From an uncultured delta proteobacterium (GTDB lineage Bacteria > Desulfobacterota > Binatia > Binatales > Binataceae), in NCBI GenBank assembly GCA_963808235.1, contig CAWEEQ010000004.1:2720001-2784000 (forward strand): a stretch of 64,000 nt of DNA, in the 5' to 3' direction. The notes under the pieces were generated by a model. It saw only the letters and a program-made list of their open reading frames with translations, did no database searches and was not told where the DNA came from. This document shows positions 3,120-12,402 of the stretch, in pieces. Made by a program: the position numbers and the translations under genes. Each line of letters starts with the position of its first letter. The stretch's first letter is position 1.

Positions 3120-4493
3120 TCACGGCATCGGGATGGCCGCGCTGGTCGGATTCCAGTGTGTGGTGCCGGTCGGACTTCCCCCTAACACGGGCGCTGAAAG
3201 ATCGACGCGAACCAGGAACAGCGGCGGCTGCGGGTCGTGGTCGTTTGCCCAGGCATGAAAAAACGGGTCCGTATCCGCGAGCATGTAGGCCAGATTATTT
3301 TTCACGTCGATTGACAGCGAGTTGGGATCGCCGACGATACCGAGTTGGGTCGGCGTGCTGTCCACGTCGCCCATCGGGATCACGGTGGCGCAAATCGTAA
3401 AGACCGAGGCCGCGTCCGCAGTGGTATCGCTTCCGGGCTGGCCATTGTTGTCGAGCGCCCCGGGCACCGCCTTCGCCGGCAGATGAATCAGTTTCAGATT
3501 CTGACCGAATTCGTCGCTGATAACACCCTGATGAGTGACCCCGTTGACGACCGTCTGACCGCCCGGGCCCTCTCCGGTTGGTTCGAGAAATCCCAGTCCA
3601 GCGAATCTGATGTCCAACGCAGTGGCTGGACTCACACTTGTATCGAGCGTTGCGAAGTTGAAAGCGGTGGCCATGTCGGCTCCGACCTCATCGGATAGCA
3701 ACAGGATGTTGGTCGTGGGATCGAATCCGACTCCGTCAGTTGTAGCCCCGACGCTTTCGAAGGTTACCGGAACCAGCGGGAGCTTCGTGATATTCACGAT
3801 CTGATTTTCTCCGTCGCGCGAGACGAAGAGAATGCCGGTCGTTGTGTTGAGCGAGATCGAATCGGTGCCGATAGTGGTGATCACCGATGCGGCGTTGAAG
3901 ACCGGCGGTTCCACCGAGGTGTCCATCAGACCGACCGTAGAGGTTCCGGTCACGACCAGCAGGTTACGCACCGGGTCGGCGATGATTCCGCCGAATCCTC
4001 CGCTGTTGGTGATCCCGGGACAGGGGATTGTGTTGATCACGGTCTGAGTCGTTGTGTTTATTTCAAAGATGCTGACCGTGTCGTCGGCCAGGCGTCCTTC
4101 CGCATACACACGACCGTTCTTTTGATTGAACGCCCCGCCGGTCGGCTGAACAACGCCCGACAGTTCCAGCAGCTTGAGGACCGGATTCGCCGCACCAATC
4201 GTGAGGTCAACGACCGCCAATTGCGAGCTATTCGGAACCTGTGGTGCGGGCAGGATCGAAGCGTCAGGATTAGTCCGCACTCCTCCGCCGGTCAGCGTGT
4301 AGATCGGCACATAGCCGACGTTGTTCACTGTGTCGATCGCGATGAGCCCCTGGCCGGTCGCGCTGGAAGGTGGCGGTGGGGGCTTGTGGTGCTCGCCAGC
4401 GCAAGAAGCACAAGGATCACACGACGTAGTTAGAAATAGTCCCGACAACGCAAGCATCAGGCAAATGGCCACGCCCGCCCATCGAATGTTCAT
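3120..4493 (-). CDS. Exported (probable lipo-) protein with YncE-like beta-propeller
   Basis: Signal peptide ending LTTSC, a poly-Pro linker, then repeated D-P/T-x-x-N-L/I-L-Y/F-V blade motifs. Confidence 0.6.
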   Translation of the reverse strand: MNIRWAGVAICLMLALSGLFLTTSCDPCASCAGEHHKPPPPPSSATGQGLIAIDTVNNVGYVPIYTLTGGGVRTNPDASILPAPQVPNSSQLAVVDLTIGAANPVLKLLELSGVVQPTGGAFNQKNGRVYAEGRLADDTVSIFEINTTTQTVINTIPCPGITNSGGFGGIIADPVRNLLVVTGTSTVGLMDTSVEPPVFNAASVITTIGTDSISLNTTTGILFVSRDGENQIVNITKLPLVPVTFESVGATTDGVGFDPTTNILLLSDEVGADMATAFNFATLDTSVSPATALDIRFAGLGFLEPTGEGPGGQTVVNGVTHQGVISDEFGQNLKLIHLPAKAVPGALDNNGQPGSDTTADAASVFTICATVIPMGDVDSTPTQLGIVGDPNSLSIDVKNNLAYMLADTDPFFHAWANDHDPQPPLFLVRVDLSAPVLGGSPTGTTHWNPTSAAIPMP

Positions 4494-4699
4494 TGGATGT
4501 CCTCCCCGCAATCGAGACAAATACTGCTCAGCGGAATGCAATTCCTTGCTACCGCATCTAAGCCCCCGCTCAGTGCGCCGAAGATACGCAAAATGGAGCT
4601 ATAGAGGCAAGTGGAGGGGCAAGGTTTCGCGCCTGGAAGCTATCGGTTCTTTCACAGGACCTTCGGTCTGGTCGCTGGGCTGACCTATCGGTCTGGCGA

Positions 4700-4729
4700 T
4701 TGACAGCAGCCGCGCGCGCATATTACCGT
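4700..4729 (+). promoter_or_regulatory. Putative sigma70 promoter of the riboswitch leader
   Basis: TTGACA at 4700-4705 and TACCGT at 4724-4729 (18-nt spacer), just upstream of the SAM-I aptamer. Confidence 0.45.
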
Positions 4730-4751
4730 AGCCGCGACTGCATTGATTGCA

Positions 4752-4873
4752 GCCTTATCGAGAGCGGCGGAGGGACTGGCCCGCTGATGCCGCAGCAACC
4801 GGCCCGTGATGGGTGCTGGTGCTAACTCCTGCAGGGGTCTCGGATCGTCCGAGAATCTCCTGGAAGATAAGGC
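4752..4873 (+). promoter_or_regulatory. SAM-I (S-box) riboswitch
   Basis: P1 is GCCTTATC/GATAAGGC. Conserved core ATCGAGAG-CGGCGGAGGGACTGGCCCGCTGATGCCGC-AGCAACC, then GGTGCTAACTCCTGCAG and CTGGAAGAT. Followed by a hairpin and T-run at about 4890-4916. Confidence 0.95.
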
Positions 4874-4981
4874 GAGTGTATTTAGCCCTCGTCCTATCGT
4901 CTGCGCAGGATTTTTCACCGGCATCGTTGAAACGCGGTTGGCGTTGCGGCTCTCGACGGCGGCGGGAGAAGCGCTAACGTA

Positions 4982-5722
4982 GTGGCGACGAGGAAAACAT
5001 CATTCAGGATACTAATCGTCGGGGTCGGCGGACTCGGCGCGCCGGCGATCTGGGCGCTAGCTCGCGACGGCGCGCGGCGAATCACGCTGGTCGATCCCGA
5101 TCCGGTCGAATTGTCGAACCTCGCGCGCCAGGTAATTTTCCGCGACGACGATATCGGCGCGCCCAAAGTCGAAGCTGCGGCACGCCGGCTCAGCGAAAAA
5201 TTCCCGCAGATTAAAGTTGACAGTCACGCGATCGCGCTGGACGAGTCCAACGCGGCGAGTATCGTCGCGGAGCATGATTTTGTGATCGATGCGACCGACA
5301 GTCCGGTCGCGAAATTTTTGATTAACGACACCTGTATCGAGGCTGGCAAGCCGTTCGCGTACGGCGGCGTGATTGGGATGACCGGGCAGGCGATAACGGT
5401 GATTCCGGGCGCGAGCGCGTGTCTGCGCTGCGTGTTCGAGAATCCTCCCGGCGAGGAGGAGATTCAGAGTTGTCGAGAGGCCGGTATCGTCGGGCCGGTC
5501 GCGGGCGCGATCGGAACGATGCAGGCGGCGGAGGCGATGCGCGCCTCGCGCGCGCAGATGCCCCTTCTAGCAGGAAAAATTCTAACCTATGACGCTGCGA
5601 GTCCCGCGCGCGTCCGCATCACCGTGGTCAATCCGCGGCGCGGATGCGGATGCGGCGCAGAAAAGAAGTTGCGTCGGACGGCGACAGACAGTGCTGGCAA
5701 CCGGGCGAACGAGACGAGTTAA
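4982..5722 (+). CDS. MoeB/ThiF/HesA-family adenylyltransferase (E1-like), catalytic type lacking the N-terminal RYSRQ helix
   Basis: GVGGLG P-loop, DPDPVELSNLARQ, DATD, CLRC Zn site and SCREAGIVG. An in-frame TGA at 4928 limits any N-terminal extension. Confidence 0.9.
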   Translation: MATRKTSFRILIVGVGGLGAPAIWALARDGARRITLVDPDPVELSNLARQVIFRDDDIGAPKVEAAARRLSEKFPQIKVDSHAIALDESNAASIVAEHDFVIDATDSPVAKFLINDTCIEAGKPFAYGGVIGMTGQAITVIPGASACLRCVFENPPGEEEIQSCREAGIVGPVAGAIGTMQAAEAMRASRAQMPLLAGKILTYDAASPARVRITVVNPRRGCGCGAEKKLRRTATDSAGNRANETS

Positions 5723-5731
5723 GAGGACACG

Positions 5732-7000
5732 ATGATCTACGTAACGAATCTGAAATGTCGCGAGTGCGGGCAGGAGTATCCGATAAGCCCGCTCCACGTG
5801 TGCGAGACGTGCTTCGGGCCGCTCGAGGTCACCTACGACTACGCGAAGATTCGCGCGGCTATCTCGCGCAACGCGATCGAGAAGCGGGCGCATAATCTTT
5901 GGCGATATCGCGAATTGCTGCCGGTCGATTTCGCGGGCGAACCGGATATCGGTCCCAACTCAGGCTTCACTCCGCTGCTGCATTGTCATCGGCTGGGCGC
6001 GGAGCTTGGGCTAAAGAATCTCTATATCAAGGACGACACGGTCAACCATCCAACGCTCTCATACAAAGACCGCGTGGTCTCGGTCGCGATGGCTAAGGCG
6101 CGCGAGTTCGGTTTCACGACGGTCTCGTGCGCGTCGACGGGAAACCTGGCGACCGCGGTTGCGGCGCACGCGGCGCGCGCGGGATTGCAATGCTACATCT
6201 TCATGCCCGAAGGGGTGGAGGCGGGAAAGATTGTCGGCTCGACGATTTACGGCGCTCGCGTGATCACGATTCGCGGCAACTACGACGACGTCAACCGGCT
6301 ATGCAGCGAGATTGCGGACAAGTACGGGTGGGCATTTGTGAATATCAACCTGCGCCCGTTCTACACCGAAGGCGCAAAAACGTTCGGCTTCGAAGTTGCG
6401 GAGCAACTCGGGTGGCGGCTGCCGGATCATATTGTGGTGCCGACCGCGGGCGGGACGATTTTGCCGAAGGTCGCGAAGGCATTTAAGGAATTCAAGGAAG
6501 TCGGTCTGATCAAGAGCGGCGAGTTCAAGATTCATTCGGCGCAAGCCGCGGGTTCCGCGCCGGTGATACATGCACTGCACAAGCATACGGACCTGATTAC
6601 GCCGGTGAAGCCAGACACGATCGCGAAATCGATCGCGATCGGAAATCCGGCCGACGGATTTTACGTGTTGAAGGCGGTGCGCGAATCGGGCGGATGGGGC
6701 GACGTTGCGACCGACCCGGAGATAATCGACGCGATCAAACTGCTCGCGCGCTCAGAGGGTATCTTCGCGGAGCCGGCGGGCGGCACCACGCTCGCGGTCA
6801 CGCTCAAGCTGATCGCGCAGGGCCGTATCAAGCCGGACGAGACCGTGGTCGTGGCGATCACCGGCAACGGATACAAAACTCTCGAAGCGGTCGCGAGTGC
6901 GATCGATCAGCCGTCGATAATCGATGCGCGACTGAAAGATTTCGACGCGTTGTTCGAGCGGCTCACTGATGGAAAGCGCACTGCCGCAGGCGCCGCATGA
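5732..7000 (+). CDS. thrC: Threonine synthase-like PLP enzyme, possibly an O-phosphohomoserine sulfhydrylase
   Basis: N-terminal Zn ribbon CREC..CETC, HPTLSYKDR (PLP lysine), ASTGNLA and EGAKT. Its position behind a SAM riboswitch and next to a sulfur carrier questions the threonine function. Confidence 0.85.
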   Translation: MIYVTNLKCRECGQEYPISPLHVCETCFGPLEVTYDYAKIRAAISRNAIEKRAHNLWRYRELLPVDFAGEPDIGPNSGFTPLLHCHRLGAELGLKNLYIKDDTVNHPTLSYKDRVVSVAMAKAREFGFTTVSCASTGNLATAVAAHAARAGLQCYIFMPEGVEAGKIVGSTIYGARVITIRGNYDDVNRLCSEIADKYGWAFVNINLRPFYTEGAKTFGFEVAEQLGWRLPDHIVVPTAGGTILPKVAKAFKEFKEVGLIKSGEFKIHSAQAAGSAPVIHALHKHTDLITPVKPDTIAKSIAIGNPADGFYVLKAVRESGGWGDVATDPEIIDAIKLLARSEGIFAEPAGGTTLAVTLKLIAQGRIKPDETVVVAITGNGYKTLEAVASAIDQPSIIDARLKDFDALFERLTDGKRTAAGAA

Positions 7001-7082
7001 TCATGCAAATGCGTTCGCTGCTTGTTTGGGCGCAGCGGCCAGCATAAGTGTAAGAATTCAAGCAGGAGGTAACTTTCAAGCC

Positions 7083-7361
7083 ATGCCAGTACGGGTCAGA
7101 GTACCAACTCCTCTTAGAAGGTTCACCGCGGGTGTCGATGAAGTGCCGGCCGACGGCGCGTCGATCAAGGCGGTAATCGAAGACCTGGAAAAGCGTCATC
7201 CGGGGATGCGCGAGCGGCTGCTCGACGAAAAAGGCGACATCAGGCGTTTCGTGAATATCTACCTGAACGGCAACGACGTTCGCTTTCTCGACGCGATTAA
7301 CTCGAAGGTCAAGGATGGCGACGACATCTCAATCGTTCCCGCAATTGCCGGCGGACGCTAA
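7083..7361 (+). CDS. MoaD/ThiS/CysO-type ubiquitin-like sulfur carrier protein
   Basis: Reads VRVPTPLRRFT...RRFVNIYLNGNDVRFL...IVPAIAGGR*. RBS AGGAGG upstream. Confidence 0.93.
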   Translation: MPVRVRVPTPLRRFTAGVDEVPADGASIKAVIEDLEKRHPGMRERLLDEKGDIRRFVNIYLNGNDVRFLDAINSKVKDGDDISIVPAIAGGR

Positions 7362-7395
7362 GCGCGAGCCGCTCGTCGCGGGCGAGCGCGAGATC

Positions 7396-8370
7396 GTGCC
7401 GGTCGGACGCGCGCGGAGCGTGCTCGATCTGATCGGCAATACGCCGCTGCTGGAAATCAAGCGGCTCACGGCGGGACTGCTGAATCCCGGGGTGCGAATT
7501 TTCGCCAAGCTCGAGGGCTTCAACCCGGGCGGCTCGATCAAGGATCGGCCCGCGAAGAGCATGCTCGAGGTCGGAATTGCCGAGGGCAAGCTGAAGCCGG
7601 GCAAGGTGATCCTCGACTCGACATCGGGCAACACCGGAATTGCGCTTGCGATGCTGGGGGCGACGCTCGGCTATCCGGTCGAGCTGGTGATGCCGTCGAA
7701 CGTGAGCCGCGAGCGCAAAAAGATAATCGAAGCTTACGGCGCGAAGATTCATTTTTCGGATCCGATGGAAGGTTCGGACGGCGCGATCATCATGTGCCGC
7801 GCAATCCTCGAAAAAAATCCCGAGCGCTACTTCAAGCCCGACCAGTACAACAACGAGGCGAACTCGCTGGCGCATTTCCAGACCACCGGCCCCGAGATCT
7901 GGCGCCAGACGCGCGGCCAGGTGACCCACTTTGTCGCGGCGATCGGAACCGGCGGAACGATAATGGGCACGGGCAGGTTTCTGAAGTCGAAGAATCGCGC
8001 CATCAAGGTGATCGCGGTCGAGCCGGACGACGCGATGCATGGGCTCGAGGGCCTCAAGCACATGGCGAGCTCGATCGTACCGGGCATCTACCACGAGAAA
8101 GAGATCGACGAAAAAATTCCAGTCGGCACCGAGGAGGCGTACGAGATGGTGTACGCACTCGGGCAGGCGGAGGGCATCCTGGTCGGGCAGTCGTCGGGTG
8201 CGGCGATGATCGCGGCGCTCAAGGTGGCGCAATCGATTCGCGAAGGCGTCGTGACGACGGTGTTCTGCGACTTCGGCGAAAAATATCTTTCGACCAACCT
8301 GTGGATCGGATGGCAGGAATGGCGCCCCGACAACCTGCAACAACTCAAAGCCAAGTGGAAAAAGAAGTGA
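7396..8370 (+). CDS. cysM: Cysteine synthase family PLP enzyme (CysM-like)
   Basis: LIGNTPL, AKLEGFNPGGSIKDR, TSGNTG and GTGGT. The start (GTG 7396) is inferred. Confidence 0.88.
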   Translation: MPVGRARSVLDLIGNTPLLEIKRLTAGLLNPGVRIFAKLEGFNPGGSIKDRPAKSMLEVGIAEGKLKPGKVILDSTSGNTGIALAMLGATLGYPVELVMPSNVSRERKKIIEAYGAKIHFSDPMEGSDGAIIMCRAILEKNPERYFKPDQYNNEANSLAHFQTTGPEIWRQTRGQVTHFVAAIGTGGTIMGTGRFLKSKNRAIKVIAVEPDDAMHGLEGLKHMASSIVPGIYHEKEIDEKIPVGTEEAYEMVYALGQAEGILVGQSSGAAMIAALKVAQSIREGVVTTVFCDFGEKYLSTNLWIGWQEWRPDNLQQLKAKWKKK

Positions 8371-8378
8371 CCCGCGAT

Positions 8379-8624
8379 ATGGAACGTCTTCACGAACGCT
8401 ACTACCTGAGCTATCCGCGCAGCCTGATCAAGGAGCCGATCCTTTACCAGCTGGTAAAGAAATTCGATCTCATCTTCAACATTCGCGGCGCCAGCGTGTC
8501 TGAAGAGATGGGACTGGTCGCGGTTGAGTTCGAAGGCAGCGCCGATCAGATCGAGCGCGCGCTCACCTGGTTGCGCAGCACCGGAGTTACCGTCGAGCCG
8601 ATCGAAAAAAATGTGATCGAATAG
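8379..8624 (+). CDS. Stand-alone NIL domain protein
   Basis: 81 aa with the NIL signature EPILYQLVKKFDLIFNIRGASV...GLVAVEFEG...ALTWLRSTGVTVE. Confidence 0.85.
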   Translation: MERLHERYYLSYPRSLIKEPILYQLVKKFDLIFNIRGASVSEEMGLVAVEFEGSADQIERALTWLRSTGVTVEPIEKNVIE

Positions 8625-8630
8625 CGTGCG

Positions 8631-9232
8631 ATGGCCCTGACTCACGCGCAAATCGAACGCTACAGCCGGCAGATAATCGTTCCGCGTCTCGGCGGGCGGG
8701 GCCAGGAACGTATCCTCGCGGCCAGAATTGGGATCGCCGGCGAGGCGCGCGATATCGGAACTCCGCTCGCGTACTTAATTGGCGCGGGAGTTGGGAGAAT
8801 CGGCGTTCGGGTTGTCGGCAATCAGAGCGGATTTGATGAGACTATCGCGTCGATGCGGCAGCTCAACTCCGATGTGTCGGTTCGCATCGCTGACAAGTCA
8901 TTTGTGGACGTCGATCTGATCCTGGCCATCATCGGCAGTGACGCGGCGGCGAAAGTTGCGGAAGAGATCACTAGCAGTCGCGAGATGCGCGCACGGTGGT
9001 CGCGCGGCTCGATGCGCCGGGAATAATCGCCGTCATCCCCGACGCGCGCGGCCCGCGAATCGCAGACTCGTCGATTCTCGCGCGATTCGGCACGCGCTTG
9101 GAAGCTGCGGATTTTATCGCGATGCTCGCGACGGCCGAGGCATTCAAGCTGGTCGCCGGCTACGCGGAAAATCCATCGCGGGCGATCATTGAGTTCGATG
9201 GTTACGAGACCAAATCTCGCGTTCTGGCCTGA
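8631..9232 (+). CDS. Degenerate MoeB/ThiF-like protein (inactive-adenylation-domain type), with a 1-nt frameshift near 8994
   Basis: Keeps IERYSRQI..GGRGQERI, YLIGAGVGRI, LNSDV and AEAFKLVAG..FDG. Lacks GxGxxG, SNLxRQ and the Zn cysteines. ORFs 8631-9026 and 8996-9232 join if one base is added. Confidence 0.75.
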
Positions 9233-9237
9233 GCCAA

Positions 9238-9921
9238 ATGTACAAACTCTGGATGTTCGACTTCGACAACACGCTCGCGCGCCTCGAACCGGAAGTAGAT
9301 TGGGCGGGCGGCCGCCTGGTGCTCGAACCTTATCTCCGCTCGGTAGGCGCGCCCGATGAACTCTTCGAGCGAATACCGCGCGGCAACCTCCCGCTCTACG
9401 ACGCGTACCGAAAGTTGGTATTCGCCGGCGCGCATGGCTCGCCTCGGTCAACCGAACTCGAGCACGCGTCGGAAATAATCGAAGCGATCGAGCTTGCTGG
9501 AGTCGACCGTGCAAAGCCGCTCGAAGGTGCGCTCGAAATTCTTGCCGCTTTGAAGAAACTTGGCGCATCGGTCGCGATCGTCACGTCCAATTCCTCGCGC
9601 ACCATTCGCCGATGGTTCGAAGTGAATCGCGTTGATTTGAAAATCGACGCAATCGTCGGACGCGACAGTCTGCTCGCACTCAAGCCGGCGCCGGACATGG
9701 TCCTTCGCGCGCTGGAAATTTTGTCGGCTAAACCTTCCGATGCCGCCTTTGTCGGCGACAGCGAAGCTGATCTGCTCGCGGCCCGAAGTTCGGGCGTGCG
9801 ATTTTTCGGAATTGCGGCATCGGAGGCGGCGCGCGAGCGCCTGCTCGCGGCAGGCGGCACGGAAATTTACGCATCACCGACGGCGCTCGCGATTCATCTG
9901 AATCTGCTCGCCGCTCACTAG
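9238..9921 (+). CDS. HAD-superfamily hydrolase (Gph-like)
   Basis: Motifs FDFDNTL, IVTSN, KPAPD and FVGDSEAD. Confidence 0.9.
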   Translation: MYKLWMFDFDNTLARLEPEVDWAGGRLVLEPYLRSVGAPDELFERIPRGNLPLYDAYRKLVFAGAHGSPRSTELEHASEIIEAIELAGVDRAKPLEGALEILAALKKLGASVAIVTSNSSRTIRRWFEVNRVDLKIDAIVGRDSLLALKPAPDMVLRALEILSAKPSDAAFVGDSEADLLAARSSGVRFFGIAASEAARERLLAAGGTEIYASPTALAIHLNLLAAH

Positions 9922-10005
9922 ACGCCATCGGCGCTTGTGTCCTTCGTCGAGATTAAGTAACTTCTTTGGTTCACCAAGTAATCTATTCGTAAGGGAGCTT
10001 CGTTT

Positions 10006-10555
10006 TTGCAGATGGATCAAGGGTTTACCTTGTGGTTTACGGGTCTTTCCGGGGCGGGAAAATCGACGCTCGCGAACCTGGTCGCGGCGGAACTGAAGAA
10101 ACGAGGGCATCGCGTCGAGATTCTCGATGGCGACGAAGTCCGCACCAATCTGTCCAAGGGACTCGGCTTTTCCAAAGAGGATCGCGACATCAATATCCGG
10201 CGGATTGGCTACGTGTGTCATCTGCTGGCGCGCAATGGCGTGATCGCGATCTCGGCGGCGATTTCGCCCTATCGCGAAGTTCGCGACGAGGTGCGCCGCC
10301 AACACGATCGCTTTTTCGAAGTATTCGTGCGCTGCACGATCGACAAGCTGGTCGAGCGCGATGTGAAGGGCCTCTACAAGAAGGCGCTCGCCGGCGAGAT
10401 CAAATCGTTCACCGGAGTTTCGGACCCTTACGAAGAACCGCACAAGCCTGAACTCATCGTCGATAGCAGCACGGAAACCGTCGAGCAGAGCCTGGCCAAG
10501 TTGCTCAGTCAGGCTCGAAGAGCTGAAGTACATCAGCAAGGGAGCATCGCGATGA
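10006..10555 (+). CDS. cysC: Adenylyl-sulfate (APS) kinase, with a 1-nt insertion near 10510
   Basis: WFTGLSGAGKST, LDGDEVR and RDVKGLYKKA. Removing one base gives the usual ending RLEELKYISKGASR*, whose TGA overlaps the sat ATG (ATGA). Confidence 0.92.
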
Positions 10556-11727
10556 GCGTGCGCGACGATGCGATCTCGGCGCACGGCGGCGGTGAGCTGG
10601 TCGATCTGAAAGCGCCGGCAGCGGAGCGCGCGGCGCTCGGGGCTCGGGCGGCAAAGATGCCGGTCGTCACGCTGAATGCTCGCGACCTTGCGGATCTCGA
10701 AATGCTCGCGTCAGGCGCGTTCTCGCCGCTGACAGGTTTCATGGGCGAGGCGGATTACACTCGCTCGCGCGACGAGATGCGGCTTGCGTCGGGACTGCCG
10801 TGGTCGATTCCGATCACGCTGGCTGTCGATGAGGCAACCGCGCGTTCGCTCAAGAGCGGCAGTGAAGTCGCGCTCGCAACCGAAGACGGCAAGCGGCTCG
10901 CGATTCTCAAGCTTGCGGAAATTTACAAAGTCGATCGTCAGAAAGAAGCGCAAAGTGTGTTCGGAACGGCCGAGGACGCGCATCCGGGAGCGAAGAACGT
11001 CACCTCGATGCCGCCCTACTGCCTGGCCGGAGGTGTGACACTGATCGAAGACATACCGGGGCGCACGTTTCTCGAGTTCCCGCGCGAGCCGCGGCAGACG
11101 CGAGCCGCGTTTCGCGAGCGCGGATGGAAAAAGATCGTCGCGTTCCAGACTCGCAATCCGACTCATCGCGCGCATGAGTATATCCAGAAAGCGGCGCTCG
11201 AAATCTGCGACGGGCTGATGATTCATCCGCTGGTAGGCGAGACCAAAGGCGACGACGTGCCCGCCGCGGTCCGGATGGAGACCTACAAAGTTTTGCTCGA
11301 GCTGTACTATCCGAAGGATCGCGCGATGCTCGGCGTGTTCCCGGCGCATATGCGTTACGGCGGTCCGCGCGAGGCGATATTGCACGCGATCGTGCGCCGC
11401 AACTACGGATGCACGCACTTCATCGTCGGGCGCGATCATGCGGGAGTTGGGAACTATTACGGCAGCTACGACGCGCAGAAAATATTCGAGCGCTTCACGC
11501 CCGCCGAACTCGGAATCACGCCGTTGATGTTCGAGAACACGTTTTACTGCAAGCGATGCAACGCGATGGCGTCGTTCAAAACCTGTCCGCACACCGACGA
11601 CGATCGCTTGATCCTGTCGGGCACCAAGGTCCGCGAGATGCTACGCGCAGGCCAGGCGCCGCCGCCGGAGTTCACGCGCCCGGAGCTGGCCGCGATTCTG
11701 GTGCGGGCAATGCACGAAGCGAAGTAG
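10552..11727 (+). CDS. sat: Sulfate adenylyltransferase (ATP sulfurylase)
   Basis: Motifs GAFSPLTGFM, FQTRNPTHRAHE, MRYGGPREA, THFIVGRDHAG and LSGTKVR. Confidence 0.96.
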   Translation: MSVRDDAISAHGGGELVDLKAPAAERAALGARAAKMPVVTLNARDLADLEMLASGAFSPLTGFMGEADYTRSRDEMRLASGLPWSIPITLAVDEATARSLKSGSEVALATEDGKRLAILKLAEIYKVDRQKEAQSVFGTAEDAHPGAKNVTSMPPYCLAGGVTLIEDIPGRTFLEFPREPRQTRAAFRERGWKKIVAFQTRNPTHRAHEYIQKAALEICDGLMIHPLVGETKGDDVPAAVRMETYKVLLELYYPKDRAMLGVFPAHMRYGGPREAILHAIVRRNYGCTHFIVGRDHAGVGNYYGSYDAQKIFERFTPAELGITPLMFENTFYCKRCNAMASFKTCPHTDDDRLILSGTKVREMLRAGQAPPPEFTRPELAAILVRAMHEAK

Positions 11728-11770: not shown

Positions 11771-12166
11771 CTATTGGATCAACCGGAAACCCTTTCGGCG
11801 CGCGGCCCTGCGGTCGAACGTCGCGGTGTATTCACATCCGGCTCGAGAATTCGCCGACGCGATCAAACTGTCAGCAAAGTCAGCACCATTCTGGTACTCA
11901 TGAAGCGCGGAACGAGCGTCGTCGGGACGCTCAATCGACACTTGACTGGTCTGCAAGAGTGCCCCGAGCAGAGTGACAATCGTGGATCGGGAGTACTTGT
12001 ATCCCCGTTCGAGCACCCAGACTAACTCGGCCAAAACCACGTGATTGACAACACCCGGCTCCTCTACTGAGCAATCATTCTCAATAAATTTAACCGCCGC
12101 TCGAAACTGGGCGGGGTCATCTCTAACGAAGTAGCGAATCAGAATGTTGGTATCGATCCCCTTCAC
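11771..12166 (-). CDS. vapC: PIN-domain toxin, VapC family
   Basis: Motifs IDTNILIR, VLAELVWVL, DFADSLI and TFD. Confidence 0.92.
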   Translation of the reverse strand: MKGIDTNILIRYFVRDDPAQFRAAVKFIENDCSVEEPGVVNHVVLAELVWVLERGYKYSRSTIVTLLGALLQTSQVSIERPDDARSALHEYQNGADFADSLIASANSRAGCEYTATFDRRAARRKGFRLIQ

Positions 12167-12402
12167 CGTCGGCCGAATCTGCTCCTGATAGCCTCGTCCA
12201 TCTGTTCAATCGTCAGGCGCCGCGGAGCAGGGGCGAGCATTCCCTTGAGTTCCCGGATATCGATATTCTTCGGCACCATCACAACCTTACCGTCAGGTTG
12301 AATTACGAATTCGATTTTGTCCCCCGCTCGGAGCTTGAGATGGTTTCGGACCTTCAACGGGATCGTGGTCTGTCCCTTTCTGGTGATAGTCGATGTGGCC
12401 AT
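12163..12402 (-). CDS. AbrB/MazE/SpoVT-family antitoxin
   Basis: Reads STITRKGQTTIPLKVRNHLKLRAGDKIEF. GTGA overlap with the toxin gene. Confidence 0.92.
   Translation of the reverse strand: MATSTITRKGQTTIPLKVRNHLKLRAGDKIEFVIQPDGKVVMVPKNIDIRELKGMLAPAPRRLTIEQMDEAIRSRFGRR

Follow-up and report, generated by a model that had tools for sequence, protein, structure and literature searches.

The window analysed here is a stretch of 64,000 nucleotides (nt) from the genome (G000, an assembly of 4 contigs and 4.59 Mb) of a Candidatus Binatus soil bacterium, corresponding to contig C4:2720001-2784000. From 4752 to 11727 on the plus strand, the open reading frame (ORF) list, Pfam, NCBIfam and a covariance model delineate a single operon headed by a SAM-I (S-adenosylmethionine) riboswitch. 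The operon contains two genes of the ThiF/MoeB type, the E1-like enzymes that adenylate ubiquitin-like carriers, which we call E1-a and E1-b, as well as a gene for such a carrier. A first-pass annotation had proposed that the two genes encode a duplicated, subfunctionalised and obligate heterodimeric E1 that activates this carrier, in parallel with the eukaryotic architecture.

E1-a (4982-5722, plus strand) starts with GTG and encodes a catalytic ThiF/MoeB-type adenylyltransferase of 246 amino acids (aa). The translation contains the P-loop VGVGGLG, SNLARQ, DATD, CLRC and a C-terminal GCGCG, and the match to Pfam ThiF (PF00899) reaches an E-value of 8.5e-64 and 215.4 bits, over a cut-off of 28.1. 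The P-loop, SNLxRQ, aspartate and Cys4 zinc residues are invariant in 13 aligned sequences, from the window and 12 relatives of the genus. The protein aligns to MoeB-length proteins without insertions, and Pfam gives no further domain. It belongs to no named equivalog, with the ThiF, MoeB, MoeZ and UbaA equivalog models of NCBIfam all under their own cut-offs.

This enzyme has no N-terminal RYxRQ helix. The Pfam match covers profile positions 20-237 of 238 only, and matches to the NCBIfam MoeB/ThiF/MoeZ models begin at model positions 21-40. Translation, Pfam and alignment agree with the first-pass annotation that E1-a, with all its nucleotide-binding and Zn/Cys motifs, starts at the first Rossmann strand. 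In the 12 genus relatives, the predicted start is always 5-10 residues ahead of this strand. A hidden N-terminus was considered and ruled out. The stop-to-stop frame provides just 17 extra residues upstream, and RYxRQ is absent from all three upstream frames in the window and in the 12 relatives, as had been claimed for the window. Because the SAM-I riboswitch sits just upstream, with its aptamer ending 108 nt before the GTG, no upstream frame can supply the helix. On a larger scale, the helix (profile positions 1-19) is absent from the E1-a ORF and its upstream frames in the window and 35 further genomes.

E1-b is spread over two frames of the plus strand. The N-terminal part, in frame 1 (8631-8993), opens with MALTHAQIERYSRQI..GGRGQERI and carries the RYSRQ helix and a degenerate Rossmann half; past a missing base, this frame runs to a stop at 9026. 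The C-terminal part, in the second frame (8994-9232, ORF 8996-9232), carries the AEAFKLVAG dimerisation helix and the terminal strands. Neither frame contains a cysteine. The P-loop position reads AGDARD or AGEARD, the SNLxRQ segment falls in an 18-residue deletion of the alignment, and the NDxC segment and the crossover loop with its cysteine are deleted too. None of the catalytic and ATP-binding motifs (P-loop, SNLxRQ, Asp, crossover-loop Cys) is present. Translation of the two frames and alignment bear out the first reading of this gene: both helices are kept, GxGxxG, SNLxRQ and all cysteines are lost here, and the losses in E1-a and E1-b are complementary. Most records annotate the protein as “hypothetical protein”.

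As a single sequence, E1-b matches only the N-terminal 49 positions of the Pfam ThiF profile, below the cut-off (E-value 3e-4, 20.4 bits, cut-off 28.1). When a profile is built from its relatives, it covers E. coli MoeB from end to end (1jw9_B; E-value 6e-23, profile positions 3-212). The AlphaFold2 model has a predicted local distance difference test (pLDDT) of 85.9, and its top Foldseek matches are ThiF, MoeB and Uba4 (TMq 0.63-0.73; probability 1.00 for ThiF/MoeB), with SAE1 and APPBP1 chains ranking lower. From the full-length alignment and the fold matches, E1-b is therefore a whole but degenerate ThiF fold, and not a fragment.

The most constrained part of E1-b is the RYSRQ region. Distant members of the E1-b family all lack the P-loop and all have QIxRYxRQ, and the 16 residues that are invariant in the diverse family include Q7, I8, R10, Y11, R13 and Q14. 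Among the taxonomic families surveyed (labelled f1, f2 and so on, f1 being that of the window), helix variants are LYSRQ in f7 and RFSRQ in f5, with the second arginine, equivalent to MoeB Arg14, always retained. Relatives outside the genus keep the CxxC and CxC zinc motifs, while the genus copies have no cysteines. In f107, the E1-b position is occupied by a 155-aa protein (L144 6743-7207, in G355) containing the RYSRQ helix and some of the Rossmann half. This protein matches Pfam ThiF at positions 1-44, below the cut-off, and the same 155-aa frame is found in G364, G435 and G506. It may be a minimal donor of the arginine helix.

The split frame of E1-b is present in this sequence, with one base missing at about 8993/8994 when compared to 4 relatives. 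One explanation is pseudogene decay: E1-b would be what remains of a duplicated MoeB, and the frameshift would belong to this decay. The loss of the catalytic motifs, and in this genus of all cysteines, would fit, as would the broken or fused E1-b frames of G020, G003 and G004. The conservation of the gene makes this very improbable. Of 24 other genomes in the genus, 22 contain E1-b DNA, a tally that includes the unpublished G018 and G023. Eleven orthologues from the genus were retrieved; 10 are intact ORFs of 197-201 aa, and the eleventh, from G020, has a frameshift other than that of the window. Among 201 genomes of the class (a tally that includes G496), E1-b is present in 25 of 25 other f1 genomes, G018 included, and it occurs in 10 further families. 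The median ratio of nonsynonymous to synonymous substitution rates (dN/dS, pairwise Nei-Gojobori) is 0.316 for E1-b (45 pairs) and 0.165 for its residues 1-60; E1-a gives 0.214 (78 pairs). The gene is thus under purifying selection, strongest at the N-terminus, and decay, which the first-pass annotation had named as fatal to its proposal, is contradicted.

We consider the frameshift most likely to be an assembly error or a very recent strain-specific lesion. A nearly identical 161-nt contig from an independent soil metagenome (a single contig, depth 3.7, 3 mismatches) has a T behind 8993 that restores the E1-b frame; nothing from runs X1-X3 spans this position. About 1.5 kb downstream, near 10511 (window 10470-10570), an extra base makes cysC read into sat, giving one ORF of 573 aa. 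In 10 relatives these are two genes, with CysC ending in ..GARR, and the 4 aligned at DNA level have a stop/start overlap ATGA. Two single-base indels private to the window within 1.5 kb indicate consensus assembly errors. Split genes are also found in this region in other relatives with long contigs (G003, G004 and G013), and such indels in neighbouring genes of the same assemblies speak against decay of E1-b in particular. The extra base in cysC is probably an assembly indel, which bears on the trust to be placed in other frameshifts of this genome.

Fused frames were also observed. The library protein P0234 is a 447-aa fusion of E1-b with the HAD-family hydrolase encoded next to it, and the G004 locus (L028 7964-9187) has a fused open frame of 408 aa. 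If genuine, such fusions would hint that E1-b and HAD are functionally linked; otherwise they are a further frameshift artefact. As for a Rosetta-stone fusion of E1-a to E1-b, P0234 was the only long match, and no search was aimed at longer proteins.

In terms of distribution, a profile search of 1.84 billion representatives yielded 80 E1-b-like clusters (50% identity) at E<=1e-30, and 344 when the threshold was relaxed to E<=1e-10; almost all measure 190-270 aa. Across 301 genomes of the phylum, strong matches to E1-b (>200 bits) and to E1-a (>300 bits) coincide in the same 4 genomes, all from f1; the E1-b of G000 itself scores 160 and 99 bits as two pieces. Weaker full-length matches to E1-b occur in many other families of the class. 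In a contig scan, most of the 80 loci were ordinary MoeB matched at the N-terminal 59 residues only, and just L029, L030, L031, L036, L049, L095 and L099 were used.

Every ThiF-like ORF was then classified in 43 genomes, with loci from 20 genomes of the class survey and others found earlier. E1-b was classed by the absence of SNLxRQ and by alignments, and some P-loop pattern matches proved to be a GVGAIG motif or upstream read-through. Exactly one helix-less active E1 and one helix-bearing E1 without SNLxRQ were found in 36 of the 43. These genomes come from f1, f2, f5, f7, f8, f9, f10, f11, f105, f107 and f110, plus G335 (family not given). The pair is carried by all genomes with a dead E1-b and a readable E1-a (36/36), and this answers the call for a survey of co-occurrence in related genomes. 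Five genomes have only helix-bearing active E1s: one each in G026 (f3) and G450 (f106), and two each in G029 and G421 (both f6) and in a Nitrospirales metagenome-assembled genome (MAG). The remaining two are G060 (f31, from another class), which is intermediate, having a head-position E1 with a shortened N-terminus and a full-length active tail-position E1, and the frameshift-ridden MAG of L031, with E1-b and a fragmented E1-a. Conservation of the pair, a probable two-gene variant of the known asymmetric E1 architecture, thus extends across the class Binatia.

About 13 kb upstream of the window, G000:C4 encodes a rhodanese-MoeB fusion (L001 1090-2349) that is the only complete ThiF-family enzyme of the genome. 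E1-b could partner or modulate another ThiF-family enzyme such as this one, leaving the truncation of E1-a unrelated. The fusion is full-length (419 aa), E1-b retains a generic ThiF dimer surface, and in 3 genomes the pair persists without the carrier of the operon. We find this option improbable, as rhodanese-MoeB has its own RYSRH helix and needs no donor, and E1-a and E1-b share an operon in 35 of the 36 pair genomes, being directly adjacent in 3.

The first-pass annotation had suggested modelling both subunits with a repaired E1-b. The complex was modelled in one job of three runs, with E1-a and the intact E1-b of G019, each with its own alignment, plus ATP/Mg. The ipSAE is 0.93 in all three runs, and 0.01 for the best of 3 controls. 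The runs share at least 98% of contacts, and the partner pLDDT is 91. In the model, E1-b residues 6, 9-14, 16-18 and 20, in the RYSRQ helix, touch E1-a residues 44-45 and 47-49 (L-S-N-L-A-R of SNLxRQ, the phosphate-binding segment), so that helix residues 9-14 lie on the E1-a stretch 44-49. R10 of E1-b touches L44/S45 of E1-a, and R13 also counts among the interface residues; the output does not cover ATP contacts. The AEAFKL helix, for its part, packs against residues 172-176 of E1-a. Among the 16 residues invariant in E1-b, 9 are among the 43 interface residues of 201 (hypergeometric p 0.0015, a generous test given that the residues are contiguous). With its controls passed, the predicted complex supports heterodimerisation.

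We consider it probable that E1-a and E1-b form an asymmetric heterodimer with one active site, which adenylates a ThiS/MoaD-like carrier. This reading draws on the complementary motifs, conservation, co-occurrence, purifying selection, and the fold and complex models, and would entail actual binding of the two proteins in a 1:1 stoichiometry, a need for the arginine, and such a carrier as the substrate. E1-a keeps the nucleotide-binding and zinc motifs, and has lost the helix that reaches the ATP site of the partner in MoeB/ThiF homodimers. E1-b is a conserved pseudoenzyme that retains this helix, its most conserved part, and the dimerisation surface. E1-a would then adenylate the GG terminus of the carrier, with E1-b, as an inactive adenylation domain, giving structural support and presenting the RYSRQ arginine(s) in trans.

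Several points weigh against this reading. Of 80 solved complexes, 58 attain the pass mark used for the complex model, as do 2 of 110 mismatched pairs, and the use of own alignments and ATP/Mg departs from this calibration. The pass may also reflect the solved MoeB/ThiF homodimers, and so indicate likeness and not binding. If the pair goes back to one ancestral event, the 36 genomes may be kin and not independent trials. In G335, E1-a and E1-b are about 930 kb apart. In G002 (L017), G013 (L026) and G240 (L116), E1-a is directly followed by E1-b, HAD and cysC/sat, and the ThrC-like (MetM-like) enzyme, carrier, CysM and NIL protein are absent both from the operon and from elsewhere in these genomes. 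Because these three keep the pair without a carrier, the pair is not tied to the one carrier of the operon. The E1-b frame is also broken in G020 and G003 and forms one 408-aa frame in G004, and the soil contig that restores the window frame may itself be an error. Finally, the arginine finger of MoeB and ThiF is reported to be catalytically non-essential (PMC13139853), so a helix-less E1-a might work alone.

This last point leads to the alternative that E1-a is a self-sufficient homodimer that needs no arginine finger, like TcdA, and that E1-b is a conserved pseudoenzyme doing something else. It could, for instance, scaffold or regulate the NIL protein, the HAD hydrolase, the sulfur donor or the carrier. 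The finger is reported to be absent from E. coli TcdA (PMC13139853), and E1-a has kept the residues of the dimer surface. The constant position of the HAD gene after E1-b in f1, the 447-aa fusion of both and the unlinked genes of G335 would also suit a separate role for E1-b. We judge this alternative unlikely. The helix is absent from the active enzyme exactly where a dead partner has it (36/36), and is present in 5 of 5 genomes without a dead partner. Moreover, the RYSRQ region is the part of E1-b under the strongest constraint, and its invariant residues are enriched at the modelled interface with E1-a. For these observations, the asymmetric heterodimer remains our preferred reading.

We now turn to the other elements of the operon. 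The riboswitch aptamer (RF00162, 4752-4873, plus strand) matches the full model (1-108) with 89 bits against a gathering threshold of 44.4 and an E-value of 8.6e-22, and relatives have a conserved version of it ahead of E1-a. The E1-a GTG is preceded at 13 nt by a GGGAGA, and a promoter and terminator scan of window 4500-5100 found nothing. All genes that follow are on the plus strand. E1-a is followed by a ThrC-family enzyme dependent on pyridoxal phosphate (PLP) with an N-terminal Cys-rich ribbon (5732-7000; PALP 2.4e-72; NCBIfam threonine synthase PRK08197 319.5 bits, cut-off 303). From its family, the operon context and the riboswitch, its product is a candidate MetM-like homocysteine synthase. 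The ThiS/MoaD-family ubiquitin-like sulfur carrier (7083-7361, a start chosen within ORF 6969-7361) ends in AIAGGR and matches Pfam ThiS (2.8e-14), as well as the NCBIfam models for the MoaD family (53.9 bits, cut-off 49.5) and SAMP1 (61.2 bits, cut-off 60). Next comes a cysteine synthase of the CysM type (7315-8370; cysKM subfamily 350.6 bits, cut-off 344.15), whose ORF overlaps the carrier gene and whose start codon is uncertain. A stand-alone NIL-domain protein (8382-8624; Pfam NIL 3.1e-15) precedes E1-b.

Downstream of E1-b, a HAD-family hydrolase (9238-9921) directly follows in 16 of 16 examined f1 genomes. The last genes are the adenylyl sulfate (APS) kinase CysC and the ATP sulfurylase Sat, which form one ORF here (10006-11727) given the extra base mentioned above. 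Directly beyond the operon end, at window 11771-12402 on the minus strand, there is a toxin-antitoxin-like pair, in which a MazE/PrlF-type antitoxin (42.4 bits) comes before a PIN-domain protein (49.4 bits). On the other side, between asd and the riboswitch, a 473-aa protein (3120-4541, minus strand) has no Pfam match and an N-terminus that by eye resembles a signal peptide. At the same position in relatives it is poorly conserved or missing (25-56% identity).

The carrier C-terminus was read at 16 loci, and at 13 of these a single residue follows GG. GGR is found in 11 copies of the f1 genus, counting that of the window, and in G210; G298 has GGA and L031 has GGH; L095 ends in GG and the Nitrospirales MAG in GGGHD. 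The loci concerned are the window, L018-L028, L110, L111, L031, L095 and L036. From the extra residue(s) after GG, trimming of the carrier C-terminus is to be expected. The sole JAMM/Prok-JAB gene of the genome is located far from the operon (G000:C4:1107376-1107678).

In the CysO-CysM-Mec-MoeZ system of Mycobacterium, an E1-like enzyme converts a ThiS-like carrier to its thiocarboxylate, which then serves a CysM-type PLP enzyme. A MetO-MetM-Mec-MoeZ pathway of Streptomyces is tabulated in PMC13759103. The Binatus operon has the same pathway logic and holds genes for a carrier, an E1-like enzyme, and PLP enzymes of the CysM and ThrC types. It differs in having a two-gene E1 without rhodanese in place of a single full-length MoeZ with a rhodanese domain, a JAMM/Mec candidate elsewhere in the genome, and an added NIL protein and HAD hydrolase. 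The riboswitch and gene set would fit a carrier-thiocarboxylate route to cysteine (CysM) and homocysteine (ThrC-like). The SAM-I riboswitch would then control an operon for sulfate activation and for protein-thiocarboxylate-dependent synthesis of cysteine and, probably, homocysteine.

In terms of the origin of the pair, we computed a maximum-likelihood tree of 36 rows, to which L115 and L065, having no ORF that passed the motif filter, do not contribute. The 7 E1-a rows form one clade (support 95/86). This clade groups with two head-position E1s, the full-length one of G029 and the N-terminally reduced one of G060 (99/97), and with that of G026 (92/79). This makes E1-a the orthologue of a complete enzyme, shortened secondarily. 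The 16 E1-b rows are all on one side of a branch (99/97); active enzymes cluster, with the E1-b rows beyond a long branch. For the orthology of E1-b to the full-length tail-position E1s, the tree gives no resolution and synteny (NIL then E1) is the sole support. A single event may account for the complementary loss, given that E1-a and E1-b each look monophyletic. What emerges from the 36 genomes is long joint retention of the pair.

Both f6 genomes (G029 and G421) have the order E1, ThrC-like, ThiS, CysM, NIL, E1, which is the Binatus order with both E1s complete. Together with the tree, where head-position E1s group with E1-a, this supports the earlier claim of a duplicated and subfunctionalised E1 and fits duplication followed by complementary degeneration. 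In the Nitrospirales MAG, the operon (L036 6818-12011) consists of the modules ThiS-CysK/M-MoeB and ThrC-like-MoaD-like-NIL-MoeB-JAMM, with both MoeBs complete. The Binatia arrangement may derive from such a state with two carriers and two E1s.

Asymmetric E1s, in which a dead adenylation module accompanies an active one, are characteristic of the ubiquitin-like systems of eukaryotes. SAE1-SAE2 (for SUMO) and NAE1(APPBP1)-UBA3 (for NEDD8) resemble our pair in having dead and active adenylation subunits from separate genes, with the dead one keeping an N-terminal arginine region (PMC11354881 and PMC10557695). E1-a and E1-b have neither a catalytic-Cys domain insertion nor a ubiquitin-fold domain (UFD), and their context is sulfur amino-acid biosynthesis, with no hint of protein conjugation. 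No E2 is found in the operon, and no search for E2-like genes was made beyond it. The proposed parallel to the eukaryotic E1 thus holds for the pairing of an active with an inactive adenylation subunit, and fails for the Cys domain, the UFD and the E2, in line with the 246 aa of E1-a and its Pfam content. The pair, lacking these three, is not a member of the canonical E1 family, and its origin would be an independent one, within Binatia.

The E. coli enzymes MoeB and ThiF (1jw9, 1zud) share with the pair the fold and family, the P-loop, SNLxRQ, Asp and Cys4 zinc motifs of E1-a, a ThiS/MoaD-type carrier with a GG terminus, and, in the model, the surfaces used for dimerisation. They are symmetric homodimers with helix and active site in each subunit; here these are split over two gene products. 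Because helix and active site sit on different gene products, at most one active site per dimer is expected. The fingers MoeB Arg14 and ThiF Arg11 act in trans, according to PMC13139853. The same paper describes yeast Tcd1-Tcd2, a ThiF-like heterodimer for ct6A in tRNA in which Tcd1, lacking a key ATP-binding arginine, donates an arginine finger to the active subunit. Like our pair, it is a heterodimer of two ThiF-like paralogues, one of which donates the finger. It is unlike it in being eukaryotic, in having a tRNA substrate and a P-loop nucleotide-binding fold in both subunits, and R59A had little effect there (PMC13139853).

Among bacteria, the only asymmetric case that we found in the literature is BilD, from the BilABCD anti-phage system, which resembles ubiquitination. 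According to PMC10557695, it is an E1 whose inactive and active adenylation domains form a pseudo-dimer, with Arg9 coming from the inactive domain, and the bacterial E1-like proteins known before were all homodimers. BilD is one fused polypeptide with a mobile Cys domain, an E2 partner and a role in defence, unlike the two small separate genes of a metabolic operon seen here. We found no report of a bacterial two-gene active/inactive E1 of the ThiF/MoeB type in the main text of the open-access literature.

If the asymmetric reading is true, the pair would offer a small, soluble and tractable system (about 246 and 200 aa) for testing what the inactive subunit and its arginine contribute. The “hypothetical protein” label of E1-b also means that pathway-annotation tools might miss it or mis-score the E1 step of the operon. 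A split E1 in a housekeeping sulfur pathway would further imply that asymmetry can arise by ordinary duplication and complementary loss, with no link to protein conjugation.

On balance, we lean slightly towards the view that a true two-subunit E1, with one subunit active and the other dead but donating the arginine, arose independently in the primary sulfur metabolism of Binatia, and that related lineages retain earlier states. Under this view, these states would be the one full-length E1 of f3 and f106 and the two of f6, with G060 looking intermediate and f107 having the minimal 155-aa partner. If true, they would form a living series from the symmetric MoeB homodimer to the asymmetric E1 architecture of eukaryotes.

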